From NCBI GenBank assembly GCA_963733195.1, contig CAVTCR010000073.1:96001-160000 (forward strand): 64,000 nt of DNA, read 5' to 3'. The DNA is from an uncultured delta proteobacterium (GTDB lineage Bacteria > Desulfobacterota > Binatia > Bin18). Numbering within the stretch: the first letter of the stretch is position 1; each line of letters opens with the position of its first letter. The position numbers and the translations under genes are program-made. Under the pieces are notes generated by a model. It had not been told where the DNA came from and searched no databases. It worked only from the letters and a program-made list of their open reading frames with translations. Shown here piece by piece: positions 17,434-36,815 of the stretch.

Positions 17434-17612
17434 ACATGCTCCCTCTGCATGAACAGTCAGCCCCGTCTACCATATCCTGAGGTCGCTTGCCAAGCGTCAC
17501 CAGAAGGTCAAAAGCTACGTGTGGTGTGATGGGTGCGAGAACCGCTGCCCCTACCAATGCGGAAACGATCCGGGTAGAATCGCGCGGCTACATCAAAAAG
17601 GAGGAGAATCGT

Positions 17613-18497
17613 ATGAGCCAAATTCCGGCTGATTTGCTTGAGTTTATGGAAACGTTACGACCGCCAAAAGGGGTCAACCCCGCTGACATGTTGCAGCGGA
17701 ATGATGCGTTGATGAATGGTAATCCTCCCTCTGTAGGGGCCGTGCATGATGGGGTGCTTCTGCGTGAGGTTGCTGGCTGGCGGCTGACGGCAGATATTTC
17801 TGTCCCGCATGGTAGTGGCCCGCATCCAGTATTGGTGTATTTCCACGGTGGTGGTTGGACGATGGGAAGCCCGAAGACTCACTTGCGCGTAGGCCGAGAA
17901 TTCGCTGCTGCGGGATATCTGACGATCAACATCGATTATCGTCGTGCACCGAAGCACCGGTTCCCAGCGGCGTTCGATGACTGTTTCTTCGCGACGCAGT
18001 GGGCGGTCGAGAATGCGGCGAAGTATGGTGGTGATGCTAAGCGCCTTGCTGTTGGTGGAGACTCCGCTGGCGGAAACCTTGCCGCTGCGGTGTTGGCAGA
18101 GAGCACGAAAAAAGGTGGACCAAAGATTAACGTCGGCGTGCTGATCTACGGTGTGTTTGATTATCACGACACAATGAAAGCTTTGGGGACACCCAAGCCA
18201 GAATCGCAGTTTTATCTTCCTGTCGAGCAGTATGAGACGTTACGCGGCGATCCTCGTGTGAGTCCGCTGAATAGCTGTGCGAAGTTCCCACCATGTTACG
18301 TTGGTGTGGGGACAAAAGACCCAATTTACGCCGAGTCAATCAAGATTGCAGCAGCGTTGAAAGCTGCCGGGATTGATCATGATCTGCACGTGATCGAAGG
18401 TGCTCCTCACGGCTTTTTTCAACTGACGCCGTTACCTGCTTACGCTGAAGGGTATAAACGCGCGATTGGATTTATGGACCGGTACCTCAAGAAGTAA
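17613..18497 (+). CDS. HSL-family esterase/lipase
   Basis: HGGGW, GDSAGGNL and HGF motifs; ATG after AGGAGGAG. Confidence 0.93.
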   Translation: MSQIPADLLEFMETLRPPKGVNPADMLQRNDALMNGNPPSVGAVHDGVLLREVAGWRLTADISVPHGSGPHPVLVYFHGGGWTMGSPKTHLRVGREFAAAGYLTINIDYRRAPKHRFPAAFDDCFFATQWAVENAAKYGGDAKRLAVGGDSAGGNLAAAVLAESTKKGGPKINVGVLIYGVFDYHDTMKALGTPKPESQFYLPVEQYETLRGDPRVSPLNSCAKFPPCYVGVGTKDPIYAESIKIAAALKAAGIDHDLHVIEGAPHGFFQLTPLPAYAEGYKRAIGFMDRYLKK

Positions 18498-18553
18498 TGC
18501 TCGCTTTATGCTTCGACCCCGCTGCTGTAGCTACGCTGCTCAGAAACAAACTC

Positions 18554-18961
18554 TCAGGCAGTGTCCGATTGGGGGAGGAGCGTGAAGCCCAAGTGGGTAG
18601 CGGTGCGTTTGAGCTGGCGAATCGCCCGTTGACGCAGGTGCTCATCATAGGTCTCCTGACTCTGGGGCTGATAGGGCGTGTGATGTTTGAGGACCTGGTA
18701 GAGGATCCGGGCCAACTTATGTGCGGTGGCGGTGATTGCCGACGCCGGGCCTTTACGTGCCCGCAGGCGGCGATAAGAACTGCCCAAGGCGGTTTGCGTG
18801 CGGCCCAGGGTTTGCGCGGCCAAGCGCAACACTTGTGCCGCCCGGCGATTGCCTTTGAGGGGCTTACTGCGCAAGACCTTTCCGCCTGAGATGTCGTTGT
18901 GGGGCGCCAAGCCCAGCCAGGAAGCGAAGTGCTTCTCGGTGGGCCACTTGCTCATATCCGT
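18554..18961 (-). pseudogene. IS110 transposase, C-terminal half
   Basis: DMSKWPTEKHFASWLGLAP..ISGGKVL..AITATAHKLARILY; cut by an IS6 inverted repeat at 18962. Confidence 0.9.
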
Positions 18962-19095
18962 GGATCTGTCGCAAGTTTTCGCCTCAAGAGCGTTCTGCTA
19001 TGCTCCTCAACTAACGGTGAGGGGAGGAGCGGTGGGATGATCGACTTCAAAGGAAGCCAGTTTGAGCGGGAGATCATCATGTGGGGCGTGAGATG
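18962..19095 (+). mobile_element. IS6-family left end with truncated transposase start
   Basis: IR GGATCTGTCGCAAGTT followed by MIDFKGSQFEREIIMWGVRW, similar to the IS6 at 33991. Confidence 0.85.
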
Positions 19096-19233
19096 GCGCG
19101 TCGGATACCTGGTGCACGGATAGTTACTATCACTGGTACTGGCCACGTGAGCTACATCGAACGACCAGAAGCCTTCAACGAGGTCGTATTGCACTTTCTT
19201 AACGGCGTTGACCAAGACGGAGCAGTGCAGTAA
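19090..19233 (+). pseudogene. C-terminal remnant of an alpha/beta hydrolase
   Basis: manual translation MARRIPGARIVTITGTGHVSYIERPEAFNEVVLHFL...*; fused directly to the IS6 fragment. Confidence 0.7.
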
Positions 19234-19316
19234 CACGGACGTTGAAGCAATCGACTGCACCAAGGATAGCCTACGTGGGGAGTGGATCAACCGGTCCAGG
19301 CAAGGAGGCAACTACC

Positions 19317-20505
19317 ATGAAGACCGTTATGAGTGACAGGCGGTGGGCGAAGGCCTATCCGGAGTTAGGGACTGGCCCTGTTCCAGCCGAACCCTGTATT
19401 TCGTCGGCGTACTTCGAGCTTGAACGCGAGCGGGTCTTCCGCCGGGTGTGGTTGAATGTAGGCAGGGTCGAGGAGATTCCTAAGCCGGGAGATTATGTGG
19501 TGAGAGATCTCGCCGTCTGCAACGCGTCAATTCTACTCATGCGGGGGGATGACGGAGTCGTGCGAGGATTTCACAATGTCTGTTCCCATCGTGGGAATCA
19601 AGTAGTCGGGAACAAGAAAGGATCGTGTCGGGGAGGGCTGACGTGCAATTTTCATAGCTGGTCGTATGACAGCAAGGGGCAACTCGAAGTGGGTGCCGGA
19701 CGAGGAGAATTTTTTTGGCCTGCAGAAAAGCGAGTACGGGCTGACGCCAGTTGCCACCGACATCTGGGAAGGGTTTATCTTCATCAACCTGGATCCGCGT
19801 CCGCGGGAGAGTCTCACCGCCTACCTTGGAGGAGTCGCCGAGCAGCTCGGCGGCGGTCGCTTTGAGCGACTGACGTTAGCCCACACCTATAAGGTAGACG
19901 AACGGGCCAATTGGAAGGTGGCGCTCGATGCCCAGAATGAGGTGTATCATTTACCCTTCCAACACCGGTACTCGTTCCCGGATGTCTTTGCGCTCAAAGA
20001 GAATCGTTATACCCGGCTCCTGGATGTCAAATTCTTTCGTGAGCACAGTGTGTACTCGTGCGAGATCAATCCTGCACATAAAGTGAGTGTCAGCGAGGCG
20101 CTCATGGCTCGCCTGGACACCTCCACCACGGAGTGTCGGCTGCCGCTGATCGGAGACTTTGACTTCTATACGATTTTTCCGAACTTTGTCGTGCTGCTCT
20201 TTCGGGGTCTGACGAAGGACTACTTCATGACGTACAACTTCTGGCCGCTCGCGGTGGATCACACCATTTGGGAAGTCAATGTGTACTTTCCCCCGGCAGA
20301 CAACGTGGGACAACGGATCGGGCAAGAATACATGACGTGCCGCCTTCGCAATGTGCTCCAGGAAGATGCCACCGCCCATGAAACCGTGCACGCTGGTCTG
20401 GCATCGAGGGCAAAGACCCACGTGCTCCTGCAGGATGACGAGATTCAGATCCGGCACTTTCACAAAACGCTGGAAGACCACGTCGGATTCTACACAGGAG
20501 CGTGA
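19317..20505 (+). CDS. Rieske aromatic ring-hydroxylating oxygenase alpha subunit (frameshift near 19685)
   Basis: CSHRG...CNFHSW Rieske motif; NWKVALDAQNEVYHLPFQH mononuclear Fe motif; QED. Confidence 0.9.
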
Positions 20506-20511
20506 AGGCCT

Positions 20512-20856
20512 ATGGAACAAGAGAGAACGACCGCATCTCAGGGGATCCTGCCGGCGCCGTTTCGCAGCCTGGAACTTTTCGGCGCATGGGCACTGGCGAC
20601 GGAAAGTGAACGTATCCACAAACGCCTCGCGAGCTCGATCGAAGAGCTGCGGGTGTTTTACGGTGCCATGCTGCCGCAGATGGAAACGATCGTGCCGTAT
20701 CTCAATCAGTTCCCCCTTGAAGGCATGCCAGAGGATGTGCAACGCCTGTTCTTGCTCACACTCTCATTCGTGGAAGTCACGAGTGCGGTCGAGTTATACG
20801 GGCAACCAGGAGTGATAAACGGCTTTGACCCTGCGCGTTTTCTTCCTGTGGAATGA
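20512..20856 (+). CDS. conserved hypothetical protein coupled to the Rieske gene
   Basis: LP.PF..LE.F..WAL.TE.ER..KR..SS.EEL..FY pattern; starts 6 bp after the oxygenase stop. Confidence 0.75.
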   Translation: MEQERTTASQGILPAPFRSLELFGAWALATESERIHKRLASSIEELRVFYGAMLPQMETIVPYLNQFPLEGMPEDVQRLFLLTLSFVEVTSAVELYGQPGVINGFDPARFLPVE

Positions 20857-20929
20857 CAATCCTGCTGCTGGTATGACTCTTCAGCGTGACGAGCGTCACG
20901 CGAGACCCAGAGAGAGAGGAAGGTGAGTT

Positions 20930-21705
20930 GTGGCAGGTCGACTAGATCAGAAAGTCAGCGTTGGTGACCGGAGGCGCCTCGGGTATTGGACGAGCCGCAG
21001 CTCTGGCCTTTGCTCGGGAAGGAGCCAGGGTTGTCGTTTCCGATGTAACTGTTGTCGGAGGCGAAGAGACTGTGCAGATGATTCAGGCCACCGGCGGCAC
21101 GGCCATGTTTGTGAAGGCGGATGTCTCTCAGGGGAACGAAGTTGAGAGAATGGTCAAGCTGGCGGTGGAGACCTATGGTCGGCTGGACTGTGCGTTTAAC
21201 AATGCCGGCATCCAGGGGGATCTGGCGCAGACGGCCGAATGTAGCGAAGAGAATTGGCAACGCATCATCGCCATCAACCTGACCGGAGTGTGGCTCTGTA
21301 TGAAACATGCAATCCCGTTCATGGTGCAGCGAGGCTCCGGCGCCATTGTCAATACGGCCTCAAACTTTGGCTTGGTGGGGTCGAACGGGATGCCAGCCTA
21401 TGCGGCAAGCAAGCACGGAGTCTTGGGACTCACCAAAACAGCGGCCCTAGAGTATGCCAAGGCGGGAATCCGTATTAACGCCGTCTGTCCCGGACCAACC
21501 CAGACCCCGTTGGTGGACAACGTCTTACGCCAGCAGCCCCAGCGTGCAGAACCAAATAGTCGCAGCAATTCTAGCCAGGGAGCCCGTGGGGCGGATGGGG
21601 CGGCCCGAAGAGATTGCCGAAGCCGTGGTGTGGCTTTGTTCGGAGGCCGCTTCTTTTGTGACTGGCATCGCCCTGGCCGTGGACGGCGGCTATGTGGCGC
21701 AATAG
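20930..21705 (+). CDS. SDR family oxidoreductase (frameshifts near 20955 and 21550)
   Basis: [17 protein letters not shown] and VDGG motifs across three frames. Confidence 0.88.
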
Positions 21706-21727
21706 GCAATAGGGCAAAGGAGGAATT

Positions 21728-22198
21728 ATGAAACCGGACTGTCCCGCGCAGTTTCACGGAATTGATCACGTGGTGCTCCAAGTAACCGATAGTGAACGGG
21801 CCCTCCATTTTTACACCCAGATCCTGGGGCTCACGGTTGAGCGAGTCATTGAAGACCTGCAGATTTACCAGCTCCGTTGTGGCCGGAATCTCATTGACTT
21901 GCGTGTGTTGCCACAGGGCAAGACGCTGGCGGCGAAGGAGGAACGGGGCATAGACCATCTCTGCCTTATGCTGCAAGAGGGCGTCGACGCCATCGTCAAC
22001 TATCTCAAGGAGCACGACGTACCGATCATGTTTGGCCCCGTCGAATCGTACGGCGCCACGGGGTTCGGCACCTCCGTGTACGTCTTGGACCCGGACGGGC
22101 ACACACTCGAATTGAAGGCTGCCTACGCCCAGTATCCCATGCGGACCACCGCCAAAGAAGCAATGGCGGGTCTAACCCGGCCCGGGACAAAGCCATAG
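21728..22198 (+). CDS. VOC/glyoxalase family protein
   Basis: IDHVVL, DHLCL and YVLDPDGHTLEL motifs. Confidence 0.9.
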   Translation: MKPDCPAQFHGIDHVVLQVTDSERALHFYTQILGLTVERVIEDLQIYQLRCGRNLIDLRVLPQGKTLAAKEERGIDHLCLMLQEGVDAIVNYLKEHDVPIMFGPVESYGATGFGTSVYVLDPDGHTLELKAAYAQYPMRTTAKEAMAGLTRPGTKP

Positions 22199-22301
22199 CC
22201 CGACGGTAGGCGTTGTCAACGTGTTAGCCGTTTCCCTAAGTGATCACTTGCCGGTTCGGGTACAGAGGCCATGGCGGCGGCCCGGAAAGGAGACTTTTAC
22301 T

Positions 22302-22962
22302 ATGCCCTATCGTGTTGAGCGTATCGACCCGCAACGCACTGCCCTGATCGTGGTGGACATGGAGAATGATTTCGTCGCGCCAGGCGCCCCTATGGAAACG
22401 CCTGCCGGGCGCGCCATGCTGCCCACGCTCAAGCGCGCTCTTACCTGTTGTCGCAAGCAAGGTATCCAGATCATCTACACCACTCACGCCCATCGACGCG
22501 ATGGCTGCGACATGGGCCGCTTCGCCGACCTGTGGCTGCCGATCAGGCACGGGACTGGTCTGGTGGACGGTGAGCCTGGCATCGAGATCTATCCTGAGAT
22601 TGCGCCCCAGGCTGAGGAGTTCATCATCAAGAAGCGCCGCTATAGCGCCTTTTATGGCACCGATCTAGAGATCATCCTCCGCGGCCTGGGTATAAACACC
22701 GTGGTCATCTCCGGCGTTACCACCGAGAACTGCTGCCACGCCACCGCTCGTGACGCCTTGTTCCGCGACTACAAAGTCGTATTCCTCTCCGACGCCACCG
22801 CGACCTTCGACTACCCAGATGTGGGTCAAGGGGAAATGGCGGCCGCAGAGGTACACCGCGTCACGTTTGGTGATCCTCTCGGTCTCCACTGCCCATGTGA
22901 TGACCACCGATGAGTTCATTGCTCGCACCGTGGTCGCCCGGCCTGTGGCTGCGGTCGGTTGA
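22302..22962 (+). CDS. isochorismatase-like cysteine hydrolase (frameshift near 22866)
   Basis: ALIVVDMENDF, KRRYSAFYGT and GVTTENCCHATARDA motifs. Confidence 0.88.
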
Positions 22963-22984
22963 GGTTGTCGGCTGCACTTGTCTC

Positions 22985-23113
22985 CTTTCAAGAACCGTTC
23001 CACCGGATTGAGCTCCAGGCTATAGGGCGGGAGGCGGCGCGGCGCGACATGGCGGGGTCACGCCACCTGCTGGCTGACATGACTGGGACTGTTGTCCAAA
23101 ACAGCGCCAAGAT
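22985..23113 (-). pseudogene. IS630 DDE-domain remnant
   Basis: manual translation VLDNSPSH...*...RLPPYSLELNPVERF. Confidence 0.7.
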
Positions 23114-23291
23114 GGGCTTTGTCAACTTGTTAGGTACTATATGGTATGGCAAATTTGCAACATGAATACCCTGTCTGATGCAAAGAAACAGAAAAATCAT
23201 CGGTTTCCCGTCGAAATCATCAACCACGCGACAGCGTGACTGACACATGCATGAGGCATGGTAATCGCATAGGAATCCGAGGCAGAGCAGT

Positions 23292-24620
23292 ATGAGCCAC
23301 AAGCAACGCGCACATGCATCTCGCAGGTTTTCTGATCGCCGGGCCGGTGGCGCATAGTCATGCGCTCTGGCGCCATCCGGCGCACGCCGTGCCGTTTCTG
23401 TCGGTAGACTATTACGTCGAGATTGCGCAACTGCTCGAACGGGGTCGCTTTGATCTGCTCTTCTTTGCCGATCGCCTCGCCATCGCCGACCGCTATGGCA
23501 GCGATAAAACTGTCGGCCTACGCTATGGCGATCAAGATGCGACGCGACTCGATCCCATGCCTATTCTCGGCGCACTGGCCGCCACGACTGGACATATCGG
23601 TTTGGGAGCCACGCGGTCGACAACCTACGAGCAACCCTATCATCTCGCACGCGAATTCCGCACGCTCGATCATCTTTCACAGGGCCGAGCGGCGTGGAAT
23701 GTGGTGACCTCAATGAACGACGGTGAGGCGCTCAATTTCGGTCGCAGCTGAACACCTCAGTCATAACGAGCGCTATGACCGAGCGGACGAATTCATGGAG
23801 CTGATAGGTAAGCTATGGGAGAGCTGGGAGCAGGACGCTCTCATCCTCGATCGCGCTCAGGGTCTTTACGCGGACCCGGACAAAGTCCACTACGTCTAGC
23901 TTGCAGGTCGCTATTTCACCTCGCGTGGTCCGTTGAATATTCCTCACAGTCCCCAGGGACGTCCGGTAATTATCCAAGCGGGTGCCTCAGCGCGCGGTCA
24001 GACCTTCGCAGCCAAATGGGCAGAGGTCATCTTTCAGATCGCCCCGACCCGCACGCACATGCGGCGTGCGACCGCAGGCATCCGGGAAGCAGTCGCGCAA
24101 CTCGGACGGAAATCTGAAGACTGTAAAGTCTTAACGGCGGTGATGCCGTTTATCGGCCGCACCGAGCGGGAAGCGCAGGACACCCGCGATCAGATCAATG
24201 CACTAGTCAATCCCTTGGTCGGGCTGTCGACGCTCTCTGCCCATGCCAATGTGGATCTGGCCACGGTCGCTCTCGATGCACAGGTGGAAGACCTGCGCGA
24301 AGTTACGGCACACAGAGCTTGATTGCCCTGGCAGCGCAGCACGCCAAGGAGCACGGGCTCACAATGCGTGACCTTGGCCAACACTACGGCGAAAGCATTC
24401 TTGTGCCACAACTCTGCGGGACGGCTACTCAGATTGCGGAGCAGTTAACCGAGATGTTTACGTCGGGTGACGCTGACGGCTTCGTCATTTCGCCCGCGCT
24501 ACTACCGGACTCGTTTGCAGCCTTTGTCGAAGGACGGTTGTCCCGGAGCTGCAGCGCATGGGAGTGTTCCGGGAGGAGTATGCAGCAACGACGCTCCGCG
24601 GTAATTTATGCACGCCATAA
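23292..24620 (+). pseudogene. NtaA/DmoA/SnaA-family FMN-dependent monooxygenase pseudogene
   Basis: MHLAGF, FFAD, LDHLSQGRAAWNVVTS, PQGRPVIIQAGAS; several frameshifts plus an in-frame TAG at 23897. Confidence 0.88.
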
Positions 24621-24874
24621 GGACGAACACGGCGGATCGTAAAGCAGGAGCACAGGGCAAGACAGGAGACGGATGACATGGCCGACGTGGTCGCTCCACA
24701 CCGAACGAGGTGCGTTGCAGGAGATACGGAACATCGACAGCGGTTGTACCATTGGTAGCGCTGTTCGTTTCCTTTCATACCATCACCGCCAGTGAATATC
24801 CTCACTGTGAAGACCGCTTTCATGTCCATTGACGAGGGGACAACAGTGCGGTGGGAACGGCCTGCCGCACGAGT

Positions 24875-25012
24875 TCATGCTGATGTCGCAGCGAGGAGAC
24901 GTTGCACTTCGTGCACCACCCAGTCGACACGATCTTTACCCCAAAACCGTTTCCCATTGACAACCTAGGTTGGTACTCCCGACACCTCATCGCGGTCAAA
25001 GGCGGCCAGCGC
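24875..25012 (-). pseudogene. DsbA/HCCA-isomerase-like C-terminal remnant
   Basis: VSGVPT..VNGKRFWGKDRVDWV. Confidence 0.55.
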
Positions 25013-25303
25013 CAGATTAGGCATGGGGACCGGACCAAAGCTCGTGTGTACGATGCTCTGCCATTGCCCTTTGCTTAGAGATGTTTCCGTCCACACGCGG
25101 CGCAGTGGCGGTGCTGGGCAAGATAGGTTGTTGTCTGCTGCTCGACCGCATTTCGTCTGTACGTTTGCCACAAGTTCTTTGCCCTCGGCAAGAGTTAAGC
25201 CCAACGTCTCCATGGTGGGTGCGTCTTTGCTCACGGCCAGCCCTTCCCAGCGTTGCTGGGTCCCGTAATCCCCTATGCAGATCACTTCAATACAGAAGTT
25301 CAT
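25013..25303 (-). pseudogene. ISKra4-family transposase N-terminal remnant
   Basis: METLGLTLAEGKELVANVQ...HTSFGPV. Confidence 0.7.
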
Positions 25304-25935
25304 CGCCACCACCTCCGCTGCTGCATGAGAGACGCTAACCGTTCATTAGCTTCCTTGCGACTGAACCGTGTTGGTGTCAGTGGCCCAGTACGTGCGAGCC
25401 GTTCCTCGACACTTTTCCAACCAGTTGTGACGGCTTCTTCAAAAACCGGCCAGTCAACGTCAGATTCATCACTATAAACCTGGGCTAAGAGTTTCATCGA
25501 CCCGGCGATGGTGGCTGGGTCGCTGATCTGCGGGCTTGCCGCCTGCTGCTTGAGCATCAGCCGATAACCACGTGGTCCGCCGCAGCTTTCTGGTGGTGCG
25601 AATCCTCGCCCCTCTAAACATTCCGGATCGCGTTTGTCTGGACTCCCGTCTTGCACGTCCAAGACTCGGATCTCTCATTCCCAGAGATCAAGCGTATTAC
25701 AGATGTAGAGCAATTTCTCTTGCCGACGCAACTGAAAATCACGCAGTCGCTTGTCACGGAAGCGTCGTTGGTAGCTATTGAACTCCTGCCCATACACCCG
25801 AATGATGAAACCCAGCTCGTGCTGCCAGCCTAGCATGCTGAGGAACACGTCATGGAGTTCGGTAATTTCGACATCATCGGAGATCGCGAACACCCGCGCC
25901 ACAATCGGGTTCACGTCATTTAATACCGCACGCAA
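25300..25935 (-). pseudogene. pRiA4b ORF-3 / IS passenger protein with internal stop
   Basis: ELHDVFLSMLGW, DLWE*EIRV, GRGFAPPESCGGPRGY; directly upstream of the ISKra4 transposase. Confidence 0.75.
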
Positions 25936-26007
25936 AATGCAATAGCTTAAAGGGAGGGGGAATGGTATTTCTCATACCCCCAGCTTACTCCCTAACCGCT
26001 TCCTTAC

Positions 26008-26116
26008 GGTACTGTCGCAAAGTTGATAGTAACACTCTGTTATCTACAATTAGTGGTGTTTTTCACACTAGCGCATTTCAAGATATGGTATAGTCGGTAA
26101 ACTTTGCGACAGTACC
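26008..26116 (+). mobile_element. 109-bp MITE with IS6-type inverted repeats (copy 1)
   Basis: perfect 17-bp IR GGTACTGTCGCAAAGTT / AACTTTGCGACAGTACC; no ORF. Confidence 0.85.
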
Positions 26117-26913
26117 CTGCGCCTCGGGATAGTGCTGGGTGAGCAACGGCTGCATGAATTGGGCATAGTCACTGGCGGTGCGGCATTCGCGGACCTCGAC
26201 ATAGCGAAAGCCGGTATGGGGCTCAAACGCGAGGGACACAGAACATGAGCCGTTCTTTCTGGTATTCATAATGATACCGTTTCGCTTTGCCGGGACTCAT
26301 GGGCAGAATCCCGCCGACCTCCTCAATCAGAAAGCAGGGCCGTTCATCGAAGCAGAGTAACGGATGGCGAACGTCGTAAGGGAGCTGATAGTGATGAAGG
26401 ATATCTTCCATATGCCACACGTAAGCGCCGGTAATGTCGCCCATACACCACTGCTCACTCAACCACGGCTTGAGTTTATTTTTTTTAGTACGCGCCGCAC
26501 GCTCTCATGGGAAATCGACTCCGTCACCGCAAGTTCCACCACCTTGTCGGCCATCAACTGCAACGTCCAGCGACCCCGGCCCGTTGGGGGTGTACTGCAG
26601 GCAATCATCGCGACCTTGGCTTCCACCCGACTATCCGGCGTAATCGGACGCCCACTGCGGGGCGCGTCGTGGAGCAGCTCGAGAATAGGGGCCTGCCCCT
26701 TCTGCTGATATTTCTTGCGCACGTTGTACACTGTCCCCCGCGATACTCCCAAGATGCTCGGTCAGATCTTGTTCTTTCCGTCCTTCGTCCAACAACAGTA
26801 ACATCCGCACTCGGGTAATCGCGCGCGCACTGTTTTTCCCGTGGCCGACAAAGTCCTCCAAGGCTTTGCGTTTCCCTTTGGGTTAATGTGACGACTCGTG
26901 GTTTCGTAGGCAT
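26117..26913 (-). pseudogene. IS630-family transposase, frameshifted and truncated by the MITE
   Basis: PRSGRP, GRWTLQL, VRRVLKK-(A8 slip)-KLKPW, CFDERP and YHYEY motifs. Confidence 0.88.
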
Positions 26914-27373
26914 CCTTCCCTCCTGCTGATGGCGGGAGGATATGAAACTCGCCCTTCTTGCTCAAAATCTTTTGTGAAAGACCACTTAACGGAAAATTCG
27001 GCAAGTAGAAAACTCGCGACAAAACCCAGATGTGCGCCTCTCTCCCTTGTTTCACACGCTCACGCCACTAACCCTCCAAGTCGTGGATATAGCAAGATGA
27101 ACGAATCTGAACAGCAAGACGAACAGTTTGGGGCTCAAGGCGAACCAATTGTGTGAAGTAGAATGCGGTCCTGTACAGGAAGATGCAGGGGTGTAGCCCC
27201 AGAGACGCAAACGAATGTAACGATTTCCATTGAAATGACAAATACTTGGGAACACCATTCCGAGGGTTTGGTCTCAACGTCCTTAAGGGCAGAAGTTGGT
27301 CAGCAGTAAGGACATAGGGTGGCGCCAAGGGTGTTCAATCCTGCACTCGAGGGGAAAAGAGGAAGGAGCAGAT

Positions 27374-27737
27374 ATGGAACTACATGACGAGTCCCAAGAG
27401 CTCATCACATTGGCTGATCTGGTCCCGGTCCAGCTCAGTGATCCGATTGCCGTACGGCTGCGGATGAAGGGAGAATTTCGCCTGTTGTGGGCGGTGCTCG
27501 AAGATGGGATCGAGTGCTACCTGCGCTATGGTGACCATCCTTCTGCGGTGCTGCGGGAACTCTTCCAGGAGGCGAACGACTGGATTGAAGCTAAAGAAGG
27601 AGAAGGCCTCTGTAGTTTTATTGGCATCTGTGGGGCATTTCAGATTGATCCTAGTTATCTCCGGCGTGGTCTCCGGCGTCGGTTACGAGACAATCCGCCA
27701 GCACCAGACGCTGGGTCCGCTCAAACAGGCGGCGTAA
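27374..27737 (+). CDS. uncharacterised small protein, paralogue 1 (GE-RL--AVL-D family); frameshift near 27688
   Basis: GEFRLLWAVLEDGIECY...FQEANDWI...SFIGICGAFQIDPSYLRRGL; RBS AAGGAG. Confidence 0.75.
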
Positions 27738-27770
27738 CCAAAGCGGGGGCACGGAAGGAAGACATTTTTT

Positions 27771-27879
27771 GGATCTGTCGCAAAGTTTACGAACTATACC
27801 ATATAGTGAAATGTTCGAGCGTGAAAAACACTCCCGATTGTAGATAACAGAGTGTTACTATCAACTTTGTGACAGAGCC
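27771..27879 (-). mobile_element. 109-bp IS6-type MITE (copy 2, inverted)
   Basis: reverse complement aligns end to end with 26008-26116 (AAAGTTGATAGTAACACTCTGTTATCTACAAT shared). Confidence 0.85.
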
Positions 27880-27973
27880 GTTTTTCTTCCCCCAGGTGGG
27901 TTGTCGCTGTCCGTCCTCTGCGTGACTGTGTGGACAGTCCCCTGGGGCAGAGTGCCACGAAAGGGATGAAGTC

Positions 27974-28291
27974 ATGACCGAACCCCCGCTTGACCCGCAG
28001 CGTGCCTATGAAGCCTTAGCGGAGGCCCTCCGACTCTTCTATGCGCAACCGCCCACTGATCAGGCCCTTACCGCAGTGCGGGATGCGGTTACACATGCGA
28101 CGGAGGTGTGGCAGAGGTGCGAGTTGCACCGCGCCACCAGCACGAAGGAGTTTCGCGCTCACGTGGTCAGACTCAAATTGCTCTTGGCCGGCGTGTACCA
28201 GACCCTCGACGTCCTCCCTGGTGTGCCCTGCCAGGCGGCCTCACCGTCCTCTCCCGCGGTCAGCCCCTCTATTCGACATGAGAAACACTGA
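27974..28291 (+). CDS. hypothetical protein
   Basis: ATG ORF, helical-looking, no recognised motif. Confidence 0.4.
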   Translation: MTEPPLDPQRAYEALAEALRLFYAQPPTDQALTAVRDAVTHATEVWQRCELHRATSTKEFRAHVVRLKLLLAGVYQTLDVLPGVPCQAASPSSPAVSPSIRHEKH

Positions 28292-28609
28292 AGAGTTGGC
28301 GGGCGTACCGGAGAGCGCGGACCGTTCTCCCCTGCCCAATTTTGCCACAGACGAAAGCCCGGCCGACGCCCTCCGCTGGAGTTTGCGAAGTTCTTTGGTG
28401 CTCTGCGGTCATGATGGTGTTGATAGGCGTGAGAATGCCCTGGAACGTCTATACAAGGGCGCGCAACTTGATGTCGCCTCGGCGCAACACGTGCAGGCCT
28501 TCAAAACCTTCCAGAAAGCGGTCGTGTTTCAGATGTGTTGATAACGGGCTACAAACTTCTGATTTTTAATGTCTTTTAAGAAAGCCAGCAACAATTCTGC
28601 GACACTACC

Positions 28610-29047
28610 CCGTTTGTCCCGCAGCAGAATATCGATGACTTGCTCATGTTGATCTACCGCACGATAGAGATAGTGCTTGTGTCCACCGCGGAAGCAGAAC
28701 ACTTCGTCTACGTACCACCGCCGCCCCTATCGTCTCCGGTAGTGATGGAGCGCCTTGGCTAATTGAGGTCCGAAGGTTTGCACCCACTTAAGCACCGTGC
28801 GCGCTGAGACATCGATATGGCGCTTAGCTAAGAGTTGCATGACGTGGGCGGCCGCCAGCGGGTAGCAGGCATACCAACGCATGGCGGTGAGGATCACGTC
28901 GGGCGGCCAGCGATAGCCCGAGAACATCGACGTGGAGGCAGCCGTAAAATCACGCTGGCAAGGACTGCAGCCATAGCGCTGTCGACCCCGTTGGTCATAG
29001 CCGTCTCGTTTCGTAGCTGGCCGTTGACAAAAAGGGCAATGTATCAC
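28610..29047 (-). pseudogene. IS6-family transposase with N-terminal zinc finger, truncated
   Basis: CPFC..CSPC, FSGYRWPPDVIL, RR*GRRWYVDEVF..YLYRAVDQ; cut by an IS6-like IR ending at 28609. Confidence 0.82.
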
Positions 29048-29541
29048 GGATCCAGAGTGTACATGAGCACCAGCTAAATTCGCAAACTCCTAGTGACGGC
29101 TGTCTCCCTGCTACGGTCTGTGGTGCCTTCACAACATATATCGCTCCATGAAGCGATCCATCTCGATGTCCGGCACGTCAAGATTTTCAGACACAGGCCT
29201 CCACACGAAGGGCAAAGAGGGAAGCGGAGCAAATCAAGGTGTTGTTGCGATGCGCGGCGCGGCACACGAGCACGGAGTTCAGCACGGCACCGTCACCCCC
29301 ACCGCGTGGTAGAAGGGAGGAGCTAAGGTGAGCCTGCCCTCGGCTCCCCGCTACTGCCGACCAGCCGCGCGCATGCTATGGTAGCGGACGACTCCACGCG
29401 GTACGGCGTGGAAGAGAAAGAGCAAGGCTATGGTGAACGACGTGTCGCCTTCTGACCGCCGTCAGCGGAGACAGGGGTTTCTCAATCCGCAGCTGGTGCC
29501 GTCTAGTCTTCAGAGAAGGTATTTTCGATGCGATTTATAAG

Positions 29542-30884
29542 CAATACTTCGGACATTTTTTTGAGCGATCGGGGTTAACAAGGAAGGCCACGAACTGCTT
29601 GAATATGAGTGTGCAACTCCCACTCAGGCGGTTCATGGCCTATGACAATTGTCAGTGACATACTGCAGCAGATGCCGGCAGTCCGTCAACCACAACGAAA
29701 GTTTCTTATGGTGTTGTTTGCTACGATCCTCGCTCTGCGCGAGCGCGTGACCGGACGCAATCTGAGTCGCTACTGCGACTACTCTGAGCGGACGATTGCG
29801 CGCCAGTTCCGAGCTTCTTTCGATTGGCCGGAGTTTCATCACCGTGATGATGACAGCGGCGCTCGATCCATGCTCAGAACTCATCTCGGTGCCGGATGCG
29901 TCGTTCATTCCGAAGAGCGGCAAACAGACGTTCGGCCTGGGGCACTTCTTCAACGGCTGCGCGAATCGGGCGGAACCGGGACTGGAGATTTCGACGCTGG
30001 CAGTGGTGGACGTTACCCGCCGCTGTGCGTTCACGCTTGCCGTGGCGCAGACCCCGCCCGGCAAGGCGGACACGACGGAAGGACAAGCGCGAGGAGGAGA
30101 CGCGCATGGATTTCTATAAACAACAACTCCATGACCAGCGCCACCGGTTGCCCAGCAGGATCCGCTATCACTGCGTCGACGGCTACTTTGCCAAGCAGAC
30201 GTACATAGATGAGGGAGTGGCACTGAATCTGCACCCCATCACCAAACTACGCCACGACGCCAACGGTTTGTTTCTCTATACCGGGCCACATCCCAAGCGG
30301 CGAGGGCGACGACGCAAGTATGACGGCAAGGTCAACTTTCACGACTTGTCCCGATTTGAAGTGCTTGGCACGCTAGAGGAGAAACCGCATATCCATTTAT
30401 ACACGGCGGTGGTGTGGCACGTCTCCCTCAAGCGCCAGCTGCGCGTGGTGGTCCTCGTCAATTGGAAAGATCCCACCAAACCGCGTACATTGTCTTGGCC
30501 TCCACGGATGTGGCGCTGGACGGGCGCAAGTTGGTGGAGTTATACATCGCCCGCTTCCAGATTGAGTTCCTCTTCCGCGACAGCAAACAGTTCACTGGCC
30601 TCACCGATTGTCAGGCGCGTGCTGCACCGGTCCTCGATTTTCATTTCAATGCCGCGCTGGCGACACTCAATCTGGCCCGGACCGAGGAATTGCAGGCCCA
30701 GACCGAGCCAAAGCCCCACGTCTTCTCGATGGCGAGTTGGAAACAACGGCATTTCAATGAACGATTGCTCGATGTCTTTATTGCAAACTTAGCGCTTGAC
30801 CCCATGTGGGTGAAAAATCATCCCGGCTATGAGAAACTCAGAACTTACGGCGCTATTGCTGCCTGATTTTTGTCCGAACTATTG
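29542..30884 (+). mobile_element. IS4-superfamily (IS701/ISH3-like) insertion sequence; transposase 29642-30866 frameshifted
   Basis: IRs CAATACTTCGGACA / TGTCCGAACTATTG; 5-bp target duplication ATAAG on both sides; DASF, DGYF and YIARFQIEFLFRDSKQ motifs. Confidence 0.9.
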
Positions 30885-30956
30885 ATAAGTAGAATCTTCA
30901 ATAAGTAGACTCAAATACTTAGCTCAAAGTTTGTCCCGGAAGAGACTTAGTGTGGT

Positions 30957-31181
30957 ATGGTATCACGAGGCCTGCAAAAAGTTTTACGAGAGCATGCTCG
31001 TCTGTTATTTGGCCCTCTAGGTGGAATTGGCATTCTTTGGATCGTCACTGAATGGGTAGACCGTGCAGATTTTTTTGCCGGCATTCTTAGTGGGGAATCG
31101 GGGGTGGAAAAGATGGTAGAATGGCTTGCTTACCACCCGTCACTATTTGTTGTTGGAATTCTAGCTTCTGGGCAGTTATAG
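30957..31181 (+). CDS. small hypothetical membrane protein
   Basis: ATG ORF with two hydrophobic stretches. Confidence 0.35.
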   Translation: MVSRGLQKVLREHARLLFGPLGGIGILWIVTEWVDRADFFAGILSGESGVEKMVEWLAYHPSLFVVGILASGQL

Positions 31182-31239
31182 TTCCCACCGCTCTCTGGCG
31201 GAACCACATTGAGGGGCTGCCTCGACAATTTAATGAGGG

Positions 31240-31752
31240 ATGAGGGAGGGGACTGTGCGGCACAGACAAGTGCTCCGCGACCTTATTCATCCGGTCCACG
31301 CTAAGTGGACCGGTGCCCCCTCGTCATTTGTCACCGTAACTCGTTTTATTGAAAAGGCGGGATTTCCCCAGGGGCTCCCGCTTAAGAAGGGAGAGTTACG
31401 GCACTACGCGGAGCGCGCAGAAAAGCTGTGGTTTGGTGACCGTAAAGAGTTACTAGATTTCTGTAGGGCGATTTACCCGGCGCACGGTGAGTCGCCTTTG
31501 CTGACTCCAACCCAACGAACGCATCTCTACCTAGCGAGAACGTTGCTCGCGAAGTTTTGGGATGAATGGGGGAGGCGTTGCTACGACGAAGAAAGTATTA
31601 AGGAAGGGGTACTACTTCCGCGCTTGCAATCTTGGGAGTTGACGTTACTGACATACTTAGAAGTTGCGCTTGCTCTCCGCAACAATGAGAGATTAGAGGG
31701 GAAGCAAGGACTGTTTCGACTTGGCTACGAAGTAGCAAAAAAGAACAAATAG
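31240..31752 (+). CDS. hypothetical protein
   Basis: 170-aa ATG ORF with GAGG RBS; no motif recognised. Confidence 0.55.
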   Translation: MREGTVRHRQVLRDLIHPVHAKWTGAPSSFVTVTRFIEKAGFPQGLPLKKGELRHYAERAEKLWFGDRKELLDFCRAIYPAHGESPLLTPTQRTHLYLARTLLAKFWDEWGRRCYDEESIKEGVLLPRLQSWELTLLTYLEVALALRNNERLEGKQGLFRLGYEVAKKNK

Positions 31753-32129
31753 TGACAACGTGTTCATGCCATTACCCCCGAGTTTGGCAGCAAAATTCTC
31801 CTTATTTTTTGCTACTTTCGGTGACGTATCTCTCCTGTATCCTCTGACTCGTCCTCTCCCCAATCGTCTCGTACGCCCCAAGAGGGACGTCATTTTGAGG
31901 AGGCTACGCAATGAGACGCTTCAACGAGTCCCGAGCGAGCCATCTATTTCTACTGGCGCGTGGTCAGCGTCACCAAGATAAAGATCGTGGCTGTCAGTGC
32001 CCAAAAGAACAAGTTGAAAAGATTCCCAGCCAATACGTCGCATCATTGAGGAGCATCCGTATGCACATGAGACCTCCCGGAAAAGGGGCGACTTCGTGCC
32101 CCACCGGGTGCTCCCTCGAAAATAGTGGC

Positions 32130-33390
32130 TTAACCAGGCAACGCGAGGGAGCGCTCTTCTAGGCTTTGGACGGTCACGTGTAGCCCAAGGCGTTCGAGTC
32201 GCTTCAGGAGCATCCGTTTCCGGTGGTCGGCGTTGAGGCGGTCCACATAATCTGCACCCAATTCTCGGTCCGGCTGTTTGGCTTTGAGCCTATGATACAC
32301 TATCCCCAAGATCGTATGGGCGACGGCGACAATCGCGCGCTTCTTCCCCTTACGGGCAGCGAGGCGACGGAACCGAGTCGCCAAGTAGGTGTCCTTGGTA
32401 TGCGACGCCGCCCAAGCAGCTTGACAGAGACTACGCCGCAACCACGCGTTCCCCTTACGAGAGGTCCCCGACAAGCGCTTGCCAGCGCTCTCGTGATTGC
32501 CGGGACACAGACCCGCCCAGCTGGCCAAGTGCTGGGCAGAAGGAAACTGCTCCTTATTCACTCCGATCTCGGCCACCAGATTGGTGGCGGCGACCTCCTC
32601 AATGCCGGGAATCGTCGTACACAGGGTGATAGCGTCCTGGTACTCTGTGACATGCGCTTAAATCTGTTCGTCCAGCCTTGCAATCTGGGATTCCAGGAAT
32701 GCCAATTGTTCCCACTGCGAGACGCAACCGCCAGCGATGGTGGTCTGTGAGGCGGCCGTGGAGCGCGAGCTGCAGGGCGGGAATCTTCTCCCGCAAACGG
32801 CCGCGGGCTAGGTCAGCGCGTGTGGCGACATCTTCTTCCCCGCCAGCAGTTGGGCGGGCATAGCGCGGCCCAGAAACCCCTAACCAGTCACTCGCCACCG
32901 AGGCCAGCTTGAGGTTAGCGTCCTCCAGGATCTTTTGCCTGCGCTTGGCGACCGCCGTGTGATCCTGACGCAGACTCGTTCGCAGCCGGGTGAGGTCCCG
33001 CAGCTCCCGTATCGGCGGTGGAGGCCAGAAGCTGCCCCGCAGCAACCCCTGCTGGAGTAAGTCCGCAATCCATTGATAGTCTTTCGGGGTCAGTTTTGCG
33101 GCCGGGGACCGCTTTGATGTGCTGAGCATTGATTAGCAACACCTCAAACTGTCCTTCCAGGATGTTCCAGACCGGCTGCCAATAAACCCCCGTGGATTCC
33201 ATTGCCACATGAGTGACCTGCAGGCCGTGCAACCAGTCTGTCAACTCCAGCAGGTCGCGGGTCATGGTCCCGAACCGACGAATCTCCTGCTGGGTGGTAC
33301 CGGCAGCGTCCCGCAGAAGAACACAGGTGGTGATCCTCTTCTTGTGCACGTCCAATCCACAACAGCGAGCATACCTGACGCACCTGCCTC
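32130..33390 (-). pseudogene. second IS110-family transposase, frameshifted
   Basis: GLDVHK, MESTGVYW, PGRKTD, AEIG..FPSAQHLASWAGLCPGNHESAGK, AIVAVAH. Confidence 0.9.
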
Positions 33391-33630
33391 CCTCCTTCCA
33401 CGCGTCAAAAGCCGAGCGTCTACTCTCAGTAGACTCTCCCTCGCGTGCTCGCCACTGATAGCGGCGGCGACAATTCGTTATGCCTGCGGGCGCTCCGGTT
33501 ACACTGGTGCGCGGGCTTCTACAGCGCCAGCACCCTTCAACCTCTCTGCTCTTGACGACGCACCCTCAAGAGAAGCACAGTCCGTCCTCATTTTCATCCT
33601 TCACTGTGAGCACTCAGCTCATCACCCACT

Positions 33631-33990
33631 GGTGCCATTCGCAAACCCAGGACGCGCGAGGGTAGGTGCGGAGGCACTGCTCAGGCAGCCAATACTGCCT
33701 CCCAGATCTGTGGAGTTCGTGCATGAGGGGAGCAGAGGACCGAGACATCAAATTGCCCTTTCTTCATCTGGTGAACGAGTTCGATGCCAGTGCTAGTAGT
33801 AGTCGTGTAATCAAAGCGCTTGCATCCCAGCATCGGTCGCACGCGCTGTTTCACTCGCCTGTGGTCCTGCGCAATCAGGGTGTTCACATAGCGGTTCGTC
33901 CGCCCACGGAGTGTTGTTGGTAAGAGGCCCTCTGCTTGGAGTTCGCCTACCGCGACATGCGAGGCGGTATAGCCGTCAAGGGCCATCTTC
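33631..33990 (-). pseudogene. IS6 transposase C-terminal remnant with degenerate IR
   Basis: DGYTASH..NTLIAQDHRRVKQRVRPMLG..GIELVHQMKKGQ. Confidence 0.8.
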
Positions 33991-34797
33991 GGCTTTGTCG
34001 CAACTTTGCAGGTGAGAGTTGATCCGCTATGCTTCTTCCCTGATTGGGCGGTGGAAGAGGAGCGGGATGAGCGATTTCAAGGGGAGCCCATTTGAGCGAG
34101 AGATCATTATGTGGGCCGTACGGTGGTATGTTGCGTATCCCATCTCTTATCGACAGCTCGAGGAGAGGATGGGCGAGCGAGGGGTGGCTGTGGATCATTC
34201 CACCCTTAATCGGTGGGGCATTAAATACGCTCCCGAGTTTGAGAAGCAGTTCCGTTGCCGGCAGCGCGCCGTGGGAAAGAGCTGGCGGCTCGACGAGACC
34301 TACGTGAAAATCAGAGGGAAATGGGCGTATTTGTATCGCGCCGTCGATAAAGACGGCCACCCCATTGATTTTTTGCTGACCCCCCAGCGCGATCGGGACG
34401 CTGCAGAGACCTTCTTACGCAAAGCTATTCGTAGTCAGGGACTCCCAGAGAACATCACGATCGACCAGAGTGGCAGTAACACGGCAGCAATCACGCACTA
34501 CAATAAGACGCAGAAGACCGCGCTTGTCATCTGCCACTCGAAATATCTCAATAACATCGTCGAGCAAGACCATCGGGCAGGGAAACGGCTGACGCGTCCC
34601 ATGTTGGGTTTCCAATCCTTTTGGGCGGCCCGCTGTACGGTCGCCGGCATAGGGGTGAGGCATGCGATTCGCAAAGGCCAGCTGATATGCACTGGGAATG
34701 CACCTCAAACGCCGGCGGAGCAATGCTATGCTTTGGCCGCATAAGTCACTAAAAGTAAATACTACGCTCGTCTCCATTTTAACTTTGCGACGGAATC
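33991..34797 (+). mobile_element. IS6-family insertion sequence, full length (transposase 34067-34744)
   Basis: IRs GGCTTTGTCGCAACTT / AACTTTGCGACGGAATC; WRLDETY, YLYRAVD and NNIVEQDHR DDE motifs. Confidence 0.92.
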
Positions 34798-35576
34798 TTG
34801 CATAGTGCTGCTCAATGTACGTGTCGTATTCATGCACTTGGGTGGTGTAGAAATCATACAAGGCCAGCGCCTGCTTGAGGGCAAAGACGTGTTCGGGCCG
34901 GTAGTGGCCGCTCAGCGCTTTGGCAATCTCGGCGGCACTCGCATGGCAGCGCTCATGGCGTAGCTGGGCCAGGGCCTGCGGATCACGCTCGCCCGCGACG
35001 ATCGCGCGAATCAGCCGCAGCCCGGTGAGACCCATAATGTCACTCACCACTTGCGTCAACTAGCACGTTCATCTGCTGCAACGCTTTCTGCATATGCTGG
35101 ATATGCGTGGCGCGATTCTCGAGCAACATGGTCCGTTGCCGCAAATAGGTCCGCAACACCCGCATCTCTTCCGCCGGACGAAAAGACGCCGTGAGCAACC
35201 CATAGCTATGCAACTGCTGCAACCACTGACAATCTTGTACCCCGCTCTTGCGCCCCGGCACGTGCTTCAGATGGCGCGCATTGACCACCTAGACCTCCAT
35301 CCCGCGTGCTTCCAACACTTCATAGAGCGGAATCCAATACACCCCTGTCGATTCCAGCGCCACGCTCGTCACCTGACACTGCCCCAACCAATCCGCCAAC
35401 GCATACAAGTCTGGCGTAAACGTGCCAAAGGCCCGCACCGGCTGCGCCGCGCGCTCGGCGGGCACGCTGACCCACATCTCTTCCGCTCCAATGTCCACCC
35501 CCGCCGCCGCACGATTCTGTACTCCCAGCTTCGGGGGTACTACCGCTTGGGGCGCCCGCCGCTTGGGTCTCTGCAT
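34798..35576 (-). pseudogene. IS110 transposase, N-terminal half (partner of 18554-18961)
   Basis: GVDIG, LESTGVYW, PGRKSGVQDCQWLQQLH, GERDP; internal stop and frameshift; cut by the IS6 IR. Confidence 0.9.
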
Positions 35577-35579
35577 CGC

Positions 35580-35828
35580 CTTGTTCCTCCTGTCCCTGGT
35601 CTTCAGCCCCAGACCTGGACACCTCAGTCCCACCTACGCTGCTCAGCGGGGTCGCGGCTTGGTGCCAGCCTCGCCTCCATTCTTTGCTCCATTAGGGTCC
35701 AGAACCAGTCTCAGCATCGGGCTCCTGCAGCACCATTCGTAACGCCGGTCTTAGCTTGTCGGGGCAGGTCGCTGAGGATAGCACTCTCCCGTTTCTGTCT
35801 CCATGCTGAGCGCCCCGCGCTCTGGGGA
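35580..35828 (-). ncRNA. candidate IS110 bridge-RNA region (non-coding left end)
   Basis: about 250-nt non-coding end containing matches to the rebuilt target and donor junctions. Confidence 0.5.
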
Positions 35829-35869
35829 CTCAGCATGAACGGGTGTTCTGGTTTAAGGTGAGGATTATT

Positions 35870-35913
35870 CCGCTTGTCCTGAGCGTCGTCGCGTAAGCGA
35901 CAAAGTCGAAGGG
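35870..35913 (-). repeat. REP-like element CTTCGAC-n-GCTCAGGACAAGCGG (inverted partner of the IS110-split copy)
   Basis: CCGCTTGTCCTGAGC-GTCGTCGCGTAAGCGACAAA-GTCGAAGGG. Confidence 0.7.
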
Positions 35914-35969
35914 CGGAGAGAAAGGAGACGTTGCACGCGGGCAAATTTTCCTCTCCTTCTTCCGTTCCT

Positions 35970-36722: not shown

Positions 36723-36815
36723 AATATCCTAATGCATGATGCGTGAAACGTAATGCGTAAAGTGTGAAACGTAGAACGTAAACTCTGACGTTGTCGCGCG
36801 TTTACGTTCTACTCT

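Follow-up and report, generated by a model that had tools for sequence, protein, structure and literature searches.

The 64,000-nucleotide (nt) stretch of DNA analyzed here (the window) belongs to contig C73 in the draft genome of an uncultured deltaproteobacterium of the class Binatia, an assembly of 6.95 Mb in 87 contigs with a completeness of 93% and a contamination of 4.5%. Between an alpha/beta-hydrolase (esterase) gene and cofE, the window carries an interval of 17.4 kb, both extremities of which are pieces of one insertion sequence (IS) element of the IS110 family. Very probably, this IS110 element was guided into a repetitive extragenic palindromic (REP) sequence, was later split by IS6-linked mosaic DNA and is now a fixed relic. 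The 17.3-kb locus is thus a layered transposon relic of an ordinary sort and not a demonstrated cargo carrier. An earlier note on this DNA had described a nested element, and as an observation this is confirmed: an IS110 element resides in a REP and its recombinase gene is split at IS6-type inverted repeats. Of the interpretation given there, REP targeting and a single IS110 insertion were upheld along with the nested anatomy, whereas a pseudo-compound transposon, a working cargo and excision in trans were not. With the crossover core established below, the IS110 element spans positions 18538–35830 of the window, i.e., 17,293 bp including one copy of the core (Table 1).

Ends of the IS110 element and its REP target

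A BLAST search of the genome revealed two IS110 paralogs, located on contigs C41 and C79. Homology to these paralogs begins at 18530/18535 and ends at 35838, and the junction motifs ...GCTCAG/AAACAAA and ...GGGGA/CTCAG (the slash marks the junction) are common to all three genomic copies. As two paralogs from the same genome share them, the ends of the element are real. The sequence CTCAG that had been reported to mark them is indeed present at 18539 and 35829, with further copies of this pentamer, which is not significant alone, at 18553, 35623, 35642 and 35710.

The true crossover core is CT. It sits 3 nt to the left of the left CTCAG and equals the first two bases of the right CTCAG. This shift is required by the junctions of homologs and by intact REPs, which are devoid of the extra triplet. 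In 22 public homologs, the right-end junction reads GTTTCT-xAG-yAG-target and the left junction target-xAG-element, and the same CT core is implied in the homologs for which both junctions were recovered, the exception being L074 with GG (1/22 right junctions). The proposal that deletion from CTCAG to CTCAG rebuilds a REP was therefore correct as to the target, but not as to the exact cut, which leaves a surplus of 3 nt compared with every genomic REP copy. The corresponding reading, CTGAGCAGC, occurs in 0 of the 68 REP copies listed; of the 76 copies collected with a looser pattern, 44 read CTGAG+CGTA, which is also the reading of the window with CT as core. The empty site predicted with the CT core, on the other hand, is a consensus member of the REP family CCGYTYRTSCTGAGCGTAGC...GTCGAAGCA. 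The earlier reading, with CTGAG (sense strand) as shared core and the next three right-end bases assigned to the target, was discarded after comparison with REPs that are intact, both elsewhere in the genome and next to a homolog. A short CT core together with the lack of a long target duplication and of terminal inverted repeats, as present here, is the configuration of the IS110 group. A subterminal inverted repeat of 7 nt, CAGAAAC/GTTTCTG on the plus strand, was observed at 18541–18547 and 35791–35797, its right-end copy lying at the terminus and its left-end copy about 35 nt inside. Within it, AGAAAC is nearly invariant among 25 left ends, and the repeat exceeds the 2–3-bp pattern described for the IS110 group.

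The repeat at 11061–11101 and the copy at 35870, which faces the occupied one, had been pointed out earlier; both are members of one REP family, of which the genome has at least 68 copies. Depending on the regular expression, 68–76 copies with conserved head and tail were counted, and the copies within the window were checked for their intergenic position. The genome contains six other head-to-head REP pairs with members 10–11 nt apart. Two abundant REP families with a common CTGAG centre were noted, GTCATTCTGAG with 84 and CCGYTYRTSCTGAG with 76 sites.

Two halves of one recombinase gene

The paralog on contig C79 encodes an intact recombinase of 454 amino acids (P0001) with the domains PF01548 (DEDD/RuvC-like) and PF02371 (C-terminal Tnp), both of which are also recognizable in the window fragments. 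The Tnp domain of P0001 directly matches the IS621 structure 8wt6, though weakly (E 5e-5). In tblastn, residues 2–180 and 171–260 of P0001 matched at 35567–34790 and residues 320–454 at 18961–18557, all on the minus strand. This placement on an intact recombinase establishes that the halves are co-linear and belong to one subfamily, as the earlier note had expected from such an alignment, and that they are separated by a short central gap of about 62 lost codons (193 bp on C41, 188 bp on C79). The N-terminal piece is further damaged by a TAG codon at 35289–35291 and by a frameshift near 35046–35062, as evident from breaks in the open reading frames (ORFs) and from tblastn. Split by 15,836 bp, shortened by some 62 codons and burdened with one stop and one frameshift, the gene is no functional uninterrupted recombinase gene. 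As the C41 paralog is a pseudogene as well, C79 holds the sole intact recombinase of this clade in the genome. The closest public homolog of the recombinase (L045, 80% amino acid identity) stems from a record titled as a deltaproteobacterial metagenome-assembled genome, while most other close homologs are titled Chloroflexota/Anaerolineae; this contrast in taxonomy suggests either horizontal spread or erroneous binning.

On the nucleotide level, the C41 paralog is 84.5% identical over 18530–18962 and 82.7% over 34800–35838, and the C79 paralog 73.1% and 73.9%, so that the two halves diverge equally from either. These values bear on the idea that the halves stem from different IS110 copies residing at different REPs and were joined by IS6–IS6 recombination, in which case the 17 kb would represent rearranged chromosome. 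Every copy inserts at the same position of similar REPs, such that any two halves would seem to rebuild a REP, and IS6 elements are numerous in the genome. Nevertheless, an origin from two copies is highly improbable in view of halves that are co-linear, lie on the same strand and are equally diverged from C41 and C79, of esterase and cofE genes that are neighbors in three related genomes (see below) and of a rare ATG variant in the left-target guide that fits the flank on the far side of the interruption.

A bridge-RNA-like structure with guides for target and donor

The non-coding ends of the element are of very different length, 252 nt on the left (35577–35828) and 16 nt on the right (18538–18553). 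A long left and a short right end are characteristic of the IS110 group (PMC11208160). An alignment of 25 left ends, comprising the window, C41, C79 and the 22 public homologs, yielded a common fold in which a hairpin at the terminus is accompanied by two stem-loops, each with a large internal loop. Seventeen of the 34 predicted pairs exhibit compensatory change, and 94.7% of cells are paired, compared to 81.4% in shuffled alignments (0/500 reached the observed value) and 30–45% with slid partners. The hairpin at the tip (35808–35822, minus strand) lies outside the guide loops; it shows compensatory change in 5/5 pairs and could be either a 5' RNA stem-loop or a signal on the DNA level.

The 3' strand of the loop in stem-loop 1 (35708–35717) reproduces the final six bases of the target, then the core and then two bases of the donor; in stem-loop 2 (35637–35646), the corresponding strand consists of the final six bases of the donor, the core and two bases of the target. 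The flank/column pairs with the highest mutual information are exactly the guide positions, with identity in 21/21 or 25/25 cases. Guides fitted the junctions of the element that carries them better than the junctions of other elements (8.56 vs. 5.89 and 8.09 vs. 6.58 of 10 positions; 0/10000 permutations each) in a test which retained a mis-picked segment B for L053 and which, like all such tests, is inflated by the relatedness of homologs. The guides of the window itself score 9/10 (loop 1) and 10/10 (loop 2), the donor-left guide fitting at 6/6 positions inside the 10/10 segment. Loop 1 reads ATG in the window vs. ATT in C79, and the REP head is CATG in the window vs. CATT in the target of C79; the two guide variants each fit one REP family. 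An RNA with two internal loops that match target and donor flanks is a hallmark of the IS110 group and is apparent here via the 3' strands of both loops. For the 5' strand of loop 1, a weak signal of complementarity to the right target was obtained (14/3000 permutations). At alignment columns with a conservation of at least 92% among the other sequences, the bridge-RNA region of the window shows 0 departures. A search of positions 17000–37500 against Rfam 15 (E ≤ 1) gave no match, the presence of a model for this clade in Rfam not having been checked, and neither a sigma-70 promoter nor a terminator was found by scanning 35500–35950.

Interruption of the recombinase gene at IS6 ends

The alignment with C41 breaks off at 18962 and is taken up again at 34800, leaving 15,836 bp of interrupting DNA. 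An IS6-type inverted repeat, GGATCTGTCGCAAGTTT, begins at 18962 and another one ends at 34797, which bears out the observation that the recombinase halves, both on the minus strand, are each cut at an IS6 inverted repeat. The two IS6 ends are in direct orientation, as had also been claimed, with both reading frames on the plus strand. The right unit has the properties of the IS6/IS26 family: it encodes a single DDE transposase of the IS240/IS26 type in the range of about 220–250 amino acids, is about 0.8 kb long and carries short terminal inverted repeats, and its ends read GGCTTTGTCGCAAC... and ...(reverse complement) GATTCCGTCGCAAAG. On the left, IS6 homology is lost after about position 19110. 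As the two units are only about 72% identical over the 150 bp that they have in common, they are different elements. An 8-bp target duplication is absent, the flanks ATATCCGT (18954–18961) and TTGCATAG (34798–34805) being different, as is expected if an adjacent deletion came after the insertion. The designation as an IS6-bounded pseudo-compound transposon could thus not be maintained for a segment with a stump of about 150 bp on one side, a merely 72% identical partner on the other and no duplication.

The draft state of the genome with its 87 contigs, its completeness and contamination values and a region dense in IS fragments could also suggest an assembly chimera that arose via repeated IS sequence. 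We give this explanation hardly any credence: the IS6 units at the junctions are not misleading repeats, the left one having a single genomic match of 73% and the right one a nearest copy of 76% identity, both breakpoints fall exactly on transposon ends, and low-depth contigs from other public runs, none of which spans a junction, fit interior pieces with 1–3 differences.

The esterase–cofE locus in related genomes

Eleven esterase loci of relatives (L002–L012; L001 is the locus of the window itself) were retrieved with 1.5-kb flanks. The gene cofE adjoins the esterase gene in three of them (G001, G010 and G011), the spacer comprising about 100 bp in G001, a member of the same genus; in seven others cofE lies outside the fetched flank. 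This adjacency shows that the 17.3 kb are an insertion at one ancestral site. In the remaining case, G002 from the same genus, the contig with the esterase gene (C227, L003) ends 235 bp downstream of it in the right end of an IS110 element of the same clade, and the contig with cofE (C208, L014) starts within the left end of such an element. This IS is multi-copy in G002, with at least 13 contig ends, and has here targeted a REP belonging to the other family (GTCATTCTGAG...). Because of this different REP, the insertion in G002 is probably an independent event.

Proposed sequence of events and points against it

From the anatomy of the locus, we infer the order of events and the involvement of IS6 as follows. 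An IS110-group element of about 1.65 kb, equipped with a bridge-RNA left end, a 16-nt right end and a 454-amino-acid recombinase, first entered one REP of a facing pair in the esterase–cofE spacer; that its own bridge RNA guided this step is shown by the agreement between guides and flanks. Through IS6-family transposition, the recombinase gene would then have received 15,836 bp of mosaic DNA from a foreign source and lost about 190 bp, probably either by cointegrate-type entry and a following IS6 adjacent deletion or by two IS6 insertions and subsequent recombination. Later on, the recombinase gene would have gained a stop and a frameshift, with more IS traffic and point decay in the interior. 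The inserted DNA is itself in decay, a stack consisting of a small aromatic-catabolism set with broken members and of pieces of IS6, IS630-like, IS701-like and second IS110 elements as well as IS6-type miniature inverted-repeat transposable elements (MITEs). At present, the locus appears to be a fixed relic in which both IS110 termini and the bridge-RNA gene are intact and the element's own recombinase is dead.

Several points weigh against this account. A right-donor guide was not found when the 5' strand of loop 2 was compared with the right donor end (own junction 3.76, other junctions 3.84); the statement that the IS110 ends look intact therefore holds for the left-donor side, where the guide matches, and for the other parts by conservation with the paralogs only. 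The search for an empty site between esterase and cofE, which the earlier note had suggested, recovered the adjacency but no empty REP doublet in any of the relatives' loci fetched, and the spacer in G001 contains no REP and no IS; for lack of an empty REP pair, the pre-insertion state is a reconstruction. The frameshift in the Rieske oxygenase gene described below could be an assembly error in this draft of 87 contigs. Finally, as its termini are intact and its bridge RNA is undamaged, the unit might still be mobilized in trans.

Mobility of the 17.3-kb unit

This last point leads to the alternative that the locus is a non-autonomous IS110 cargo unit, of which the own bridge RNA and the C79 recombinase move the whole 17.3 kb, including unrelated genes and IS6, between REPs. 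Such a unit would be compatible with the conservation of both termini in the paralogs, with a bridge-RNA region unchanged at conserved columns, with the 6/6 fit of the donor-left guide inside its 10/10 segment and with the presence of one intact recombinase of the clade (C79) in the genome. In addition, IS110 loci that naturally carry cargo have been reported in a preprint, according to which a circle was recovered from a 9,177-bp locus and bridge RNA may act in trans (Hu et al., bioRxiv 10.64898/2026.08.14.744561). However, the C79 recombinase is only about 72–76% identical to the window fragments, and the right-donor end reads TACACG in C79 vs. TCCCCA in the window. Furthermore, no sigma-70-like promoter was found in 35500–35950, the unit is single-copy and the decay of the cargo looks neutral rather than selected. 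The same preprint reports that loci with truncated recombinases showed no activity and that whole-unit mobility falls with size. Taken together, we consider a mobile unit of this kind improbable.

BLAST against the genome disclosed no copies of the 17.3-kb unit elsewhere. When metagenome contigs were scanned for exact occurrences of the inner IS110/IS6 junctions (26 and 25 nt), 0 matches were obtained for either. Nine public sequencing runs were found for the region with a 9.9-kb query, each with a fraction of at most 0.07 of the sampled words, and among the contigs built from four public runs on positions 17000–36900 none extends across the IS110/IS6 junctions, the outer junctions or an empty site. 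A joint from 18962 to 34985 in run X5, with a shorter side of 24 nt, is most simply explained by the uninterrupted IS110 of a relative and was not used. That the whole 17 kb might be excised in trans, as put forward in the earlier note, was a pure inference, against which stand a single-copy unit, inner junctions that were not found in metagenome contigs and a dead recombinase. Given the single copy, the lack of junction evidence, the diverged C79 recombinase and the data of the preprint, mobilization in trans is conceivable yet unsupported.

Content and decay of the inserted DNA

The interior has a G+C content of 56.2% as compared to 52–53% outside the element. A catabolic cargo in the sense of a working unit, as previously assumed, is not present: the gene for the Rieske alpha subunit is frameshifted, that for the luciferase-like protein is spread over at least two frames, the PRiA4-like gene contains an in-frame stop and the right half consists of IS and MITE debris (Table 1). 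The Rieske alpha gene matches, in two frames, an intact 401-amino-acid open frame (stop to stop) in the relative G007, and the small ORF that follows had no match in Pfam. The best relatives of the gene set occur in other genera of the same family. In G007 it is 74% identical on the nucleotide level, with intact open frames for the three genes compared; single cargo genes reach 84–86% in G013 and G005, while genomes of the same genus do not exceed 69%. At positions 20878 and 20956, contigs of relatives from runs X2 and X5 (90–95% alike) are each one base shorter, and the window may contain further small indels between the small ORF and the short-chain dehydrogenase gene. The two MITE copies enclose 1.66 kb in inverted orientation. 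The second IS110 pseudogene (32160–33364) belongs to a different subgroup and is located beside an IS6 fragment.

Table 1. Features of the esterase–cofE interval in window coordinates.
Feature	Position	Strand	Basis
Alpha/beta-hydrolase (esterase) gene	17487–18497	+	Flank on the left side
Tail of occupied REP (right-target side, recombinase-sense orientation), ends ...GCTACG	18509–18535	-	Fits tail of family CCGYTYRTSCTGAGCGTAGC...GTCGAAGCA
Crossover core CT, left copy (AG on recombinase-sense strand)	18536–18537		Junctions of 25 homologs, REP consensus
IS110 right end, short, non-coding, 16 nt; sense strand contains GTTTCTGAGC	18538–18553	-	Common to C41, C79 and homologs
IS110 recombinase, C-terminal fragment with stop codon (residues 320–454 of intact paralog)	18554–18961	-	tblastn, 76% identity to P0001; Transposase_20, PF02371
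IS6-family remnant, about 150 bp: left inverted repeat and first ca. 24 transposase codons	18962–19110	+	Inverted repeat; N-terminal peptide alignment
Pseudogene for the alpha subunit of a Rieske ring-hydroxylating oxygenase, frameshifted once near 19672–19715	19305–20493	+	PF00355 and PF00848 in different frames
Small ORF, conserved beside alpha subunit, possible small subunit	20506–20853	+	67% amino acid identity, full length, to G007 neighbor
Short-chain dehydrogenase, apparently intact	20961–21731	+	PF00106, E 8e-59
Glyoxalase/extradiol-dioxygenase-fold protein, apparently intact	21728–22198	+	PF00903; 79% amino acid identity to G007
Isochorismatase-family hydrolase, apparently intact	22221–22913	+	PF00857, E 2e-42
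Luciferase-like monooxygenase pseudogene, at least two frames	23296–24319	+	PF00296 profile positions 9–117 and 146–245 on separate frames
PRiA4_ORF3-like pseudogene, in-frame stop at 25675–25677	25303–25971	-	PF07929 over two same-frame ORFs
MITE, 109 bp, IS6-type ends, perfect 17-nt inverted repeats GGTACTGTCGCAAAGTT	26008–26116		Copies on C12, C39, C63 and C67
IS630-like pseudogene/repeated element	26117–26988	-	HTH_32, weak DDE_3; 87% identity to two C76 copies
IS6-type MITE, second copy, inverted	27771–27881		107-nt inverted repeat, 86% match with 26006–26112
Third IS6-family transposase gene, fragment	28532–28978	-	PF13610; tblastn
Repeated IS-like element, weak DDE_5	29542–30887	+	81.5% identity to C58; PF13546, E 0.004
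Second, unrelated IS110-family pseudogene, frameshifted	32160–33364	-	PF01548 and PF02371 on three ORFs; 32–49% amino acid identity to P0001
IS6 DDE-domain fragment	33711–33896	-	PF13610; tblastn
Complete IS6-family element, 807 bp; transposase 34067–34744, 225 amino acids	33991–34797	+	PF13610, E 3e-37; inverted repeats
IS110 recombinase, N-terminal fragment (residues 1 to about 257), DEDD domain	34798–35576	-	tblastn to P0001; PF01548 on two ORFs
Bridge-RNA-like stem-loop 2; loop 3' strand 35637–35646	35615–35702	-	RNAalifold, pair counts; own junction 10/10
Bridge-RNA-like stem-loop 1; loop 3' strand 35708–35717	35703–35750	-	Structure, covariation; own junction 9/10
Outer left end with covarying terminal hairpin (35808–35822) and 7-nt subterminal repeat (35791–35797)	35751–35828	-	Motif invariant in alignment A1
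Crossover core CT, right copy	35829–35830		Junctions of 25 homologs, REP consensus
Head of occupied REP (left-target side), CAGCATGAACGG on plus strand	35831–35842	-	REP family head; specified by stem-loop 1 guide
Second REP, same family, facing the occupied one	35870–35912	+	Among 68 listed genomic copies
cofE	35970–36722	-	Flank on the right side

Relation to known systems and significance

The element resembles IS621 and the IS110 group in its DEDD and Tnp domains, a long left and a short right end, a CT core and REP targets (Durrant et al., 2024, PMC11208160; Hiraizumi et al., 2024, PMC11208158). As described for IS621, two stem-loops with internal loops are present, and on the 3' strand of each loop a guide is followed by two handshake-like bases (PMC11208158). 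In contrast to IS621, for which a preprint text gives 326 amino acids, the recombinase comprises 454 amino acids; the CT core is read on the antisense strand of the recombinase gene, a subterminal inverted repeat of 7 nt is present and the copy is dead. Moreover, guides could be demonstrated here for the 3' strands only, and no Rfam family matched. ISPpu9 and ISPpu10 of Pseudomonas putida are described as multi-copy IS110-family elements residing in REP or conserved intergenic repeats (PMC12288879; bioRxiv 10.64898/2026.03.19.712850) and are similar in this respect; they belong to another host lineage and another recombinase clade, and the copy studied here is inactivated.

IS110 loci of up to about 100 kb have been reported by Hu et al. 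(bioRxiv 10.64898/2026.08.14.744561), along with the circle from the 9,177-bp locus; these authors report no activity for truncated recombinases and no movement of whole units above about 20 kb. The expanded loci described there are comparable to ours in that IS110 donor ends surround many kilobases of foreign DNA, with stepwise growth in place. Their cargo, however, is stated to accumulate next to a recombinase module that is intact, and other transposases are lacking in about half of them, whereas the DNA reported here is located within the recombinase gene, has IS6 ends as borders and includes at least five other transposase remnants. The ends correspond to those of an expanded cargo-bearing IS110 locus, but the recombinase is broken and junction evidence was not obtained. 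As outlined by Xie et al. and Hiraizumi et al. (2026), excision needs recognition of the donor arm and is inefficient.

Direct IS6-family ends that bracket a segment are reminiscent of IS26-type pseudo-compound transposons (Varani et al., 2021, PMC7986276; Harmer and Hall, PMC7885326). According to the same sources, IS6 elements show copy-in and adjacent-deletion behavior, and the loss of flanking DNA without target duplication would fit a copy-in intramolecular event. Unlike the IS26-type pseudo-compound transposons portrayed there, the IS6 units of the window are not one element (about 72% identity), one of them is a 150-bp stump and resistance genes are not enclosed.

Nests of IS within IS, REP-targeting IS110 elements and enlarged IS110 loci have all been described before, and the locus is a new, dead example. 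It is of little importance as a cargo carrier since its recombinase is dead and its cargo in decay, and since a 2026 preprint has already described large IS110 loci with cargo. On the other hand, it documents a REP-targeting IS110 clade with 454-amino-acid recombinases, the closest homologs of which are found mainly in records titled Chloroflexota/Anaerolineae. The bridge RNA of this clade can be read straight from comparative data, and two paralogs of the same genome have different guides, ATT and ATG, which follow two distinct REP families. At the same time, the locus provides a clean example of IS6 activity that inactivates and inflates an IS110 locus. IS6 insertion thereby mimics the architecture of a cargo-bearing IS110 element and should be separated from true cargo capture when large IS110 loci are counted.

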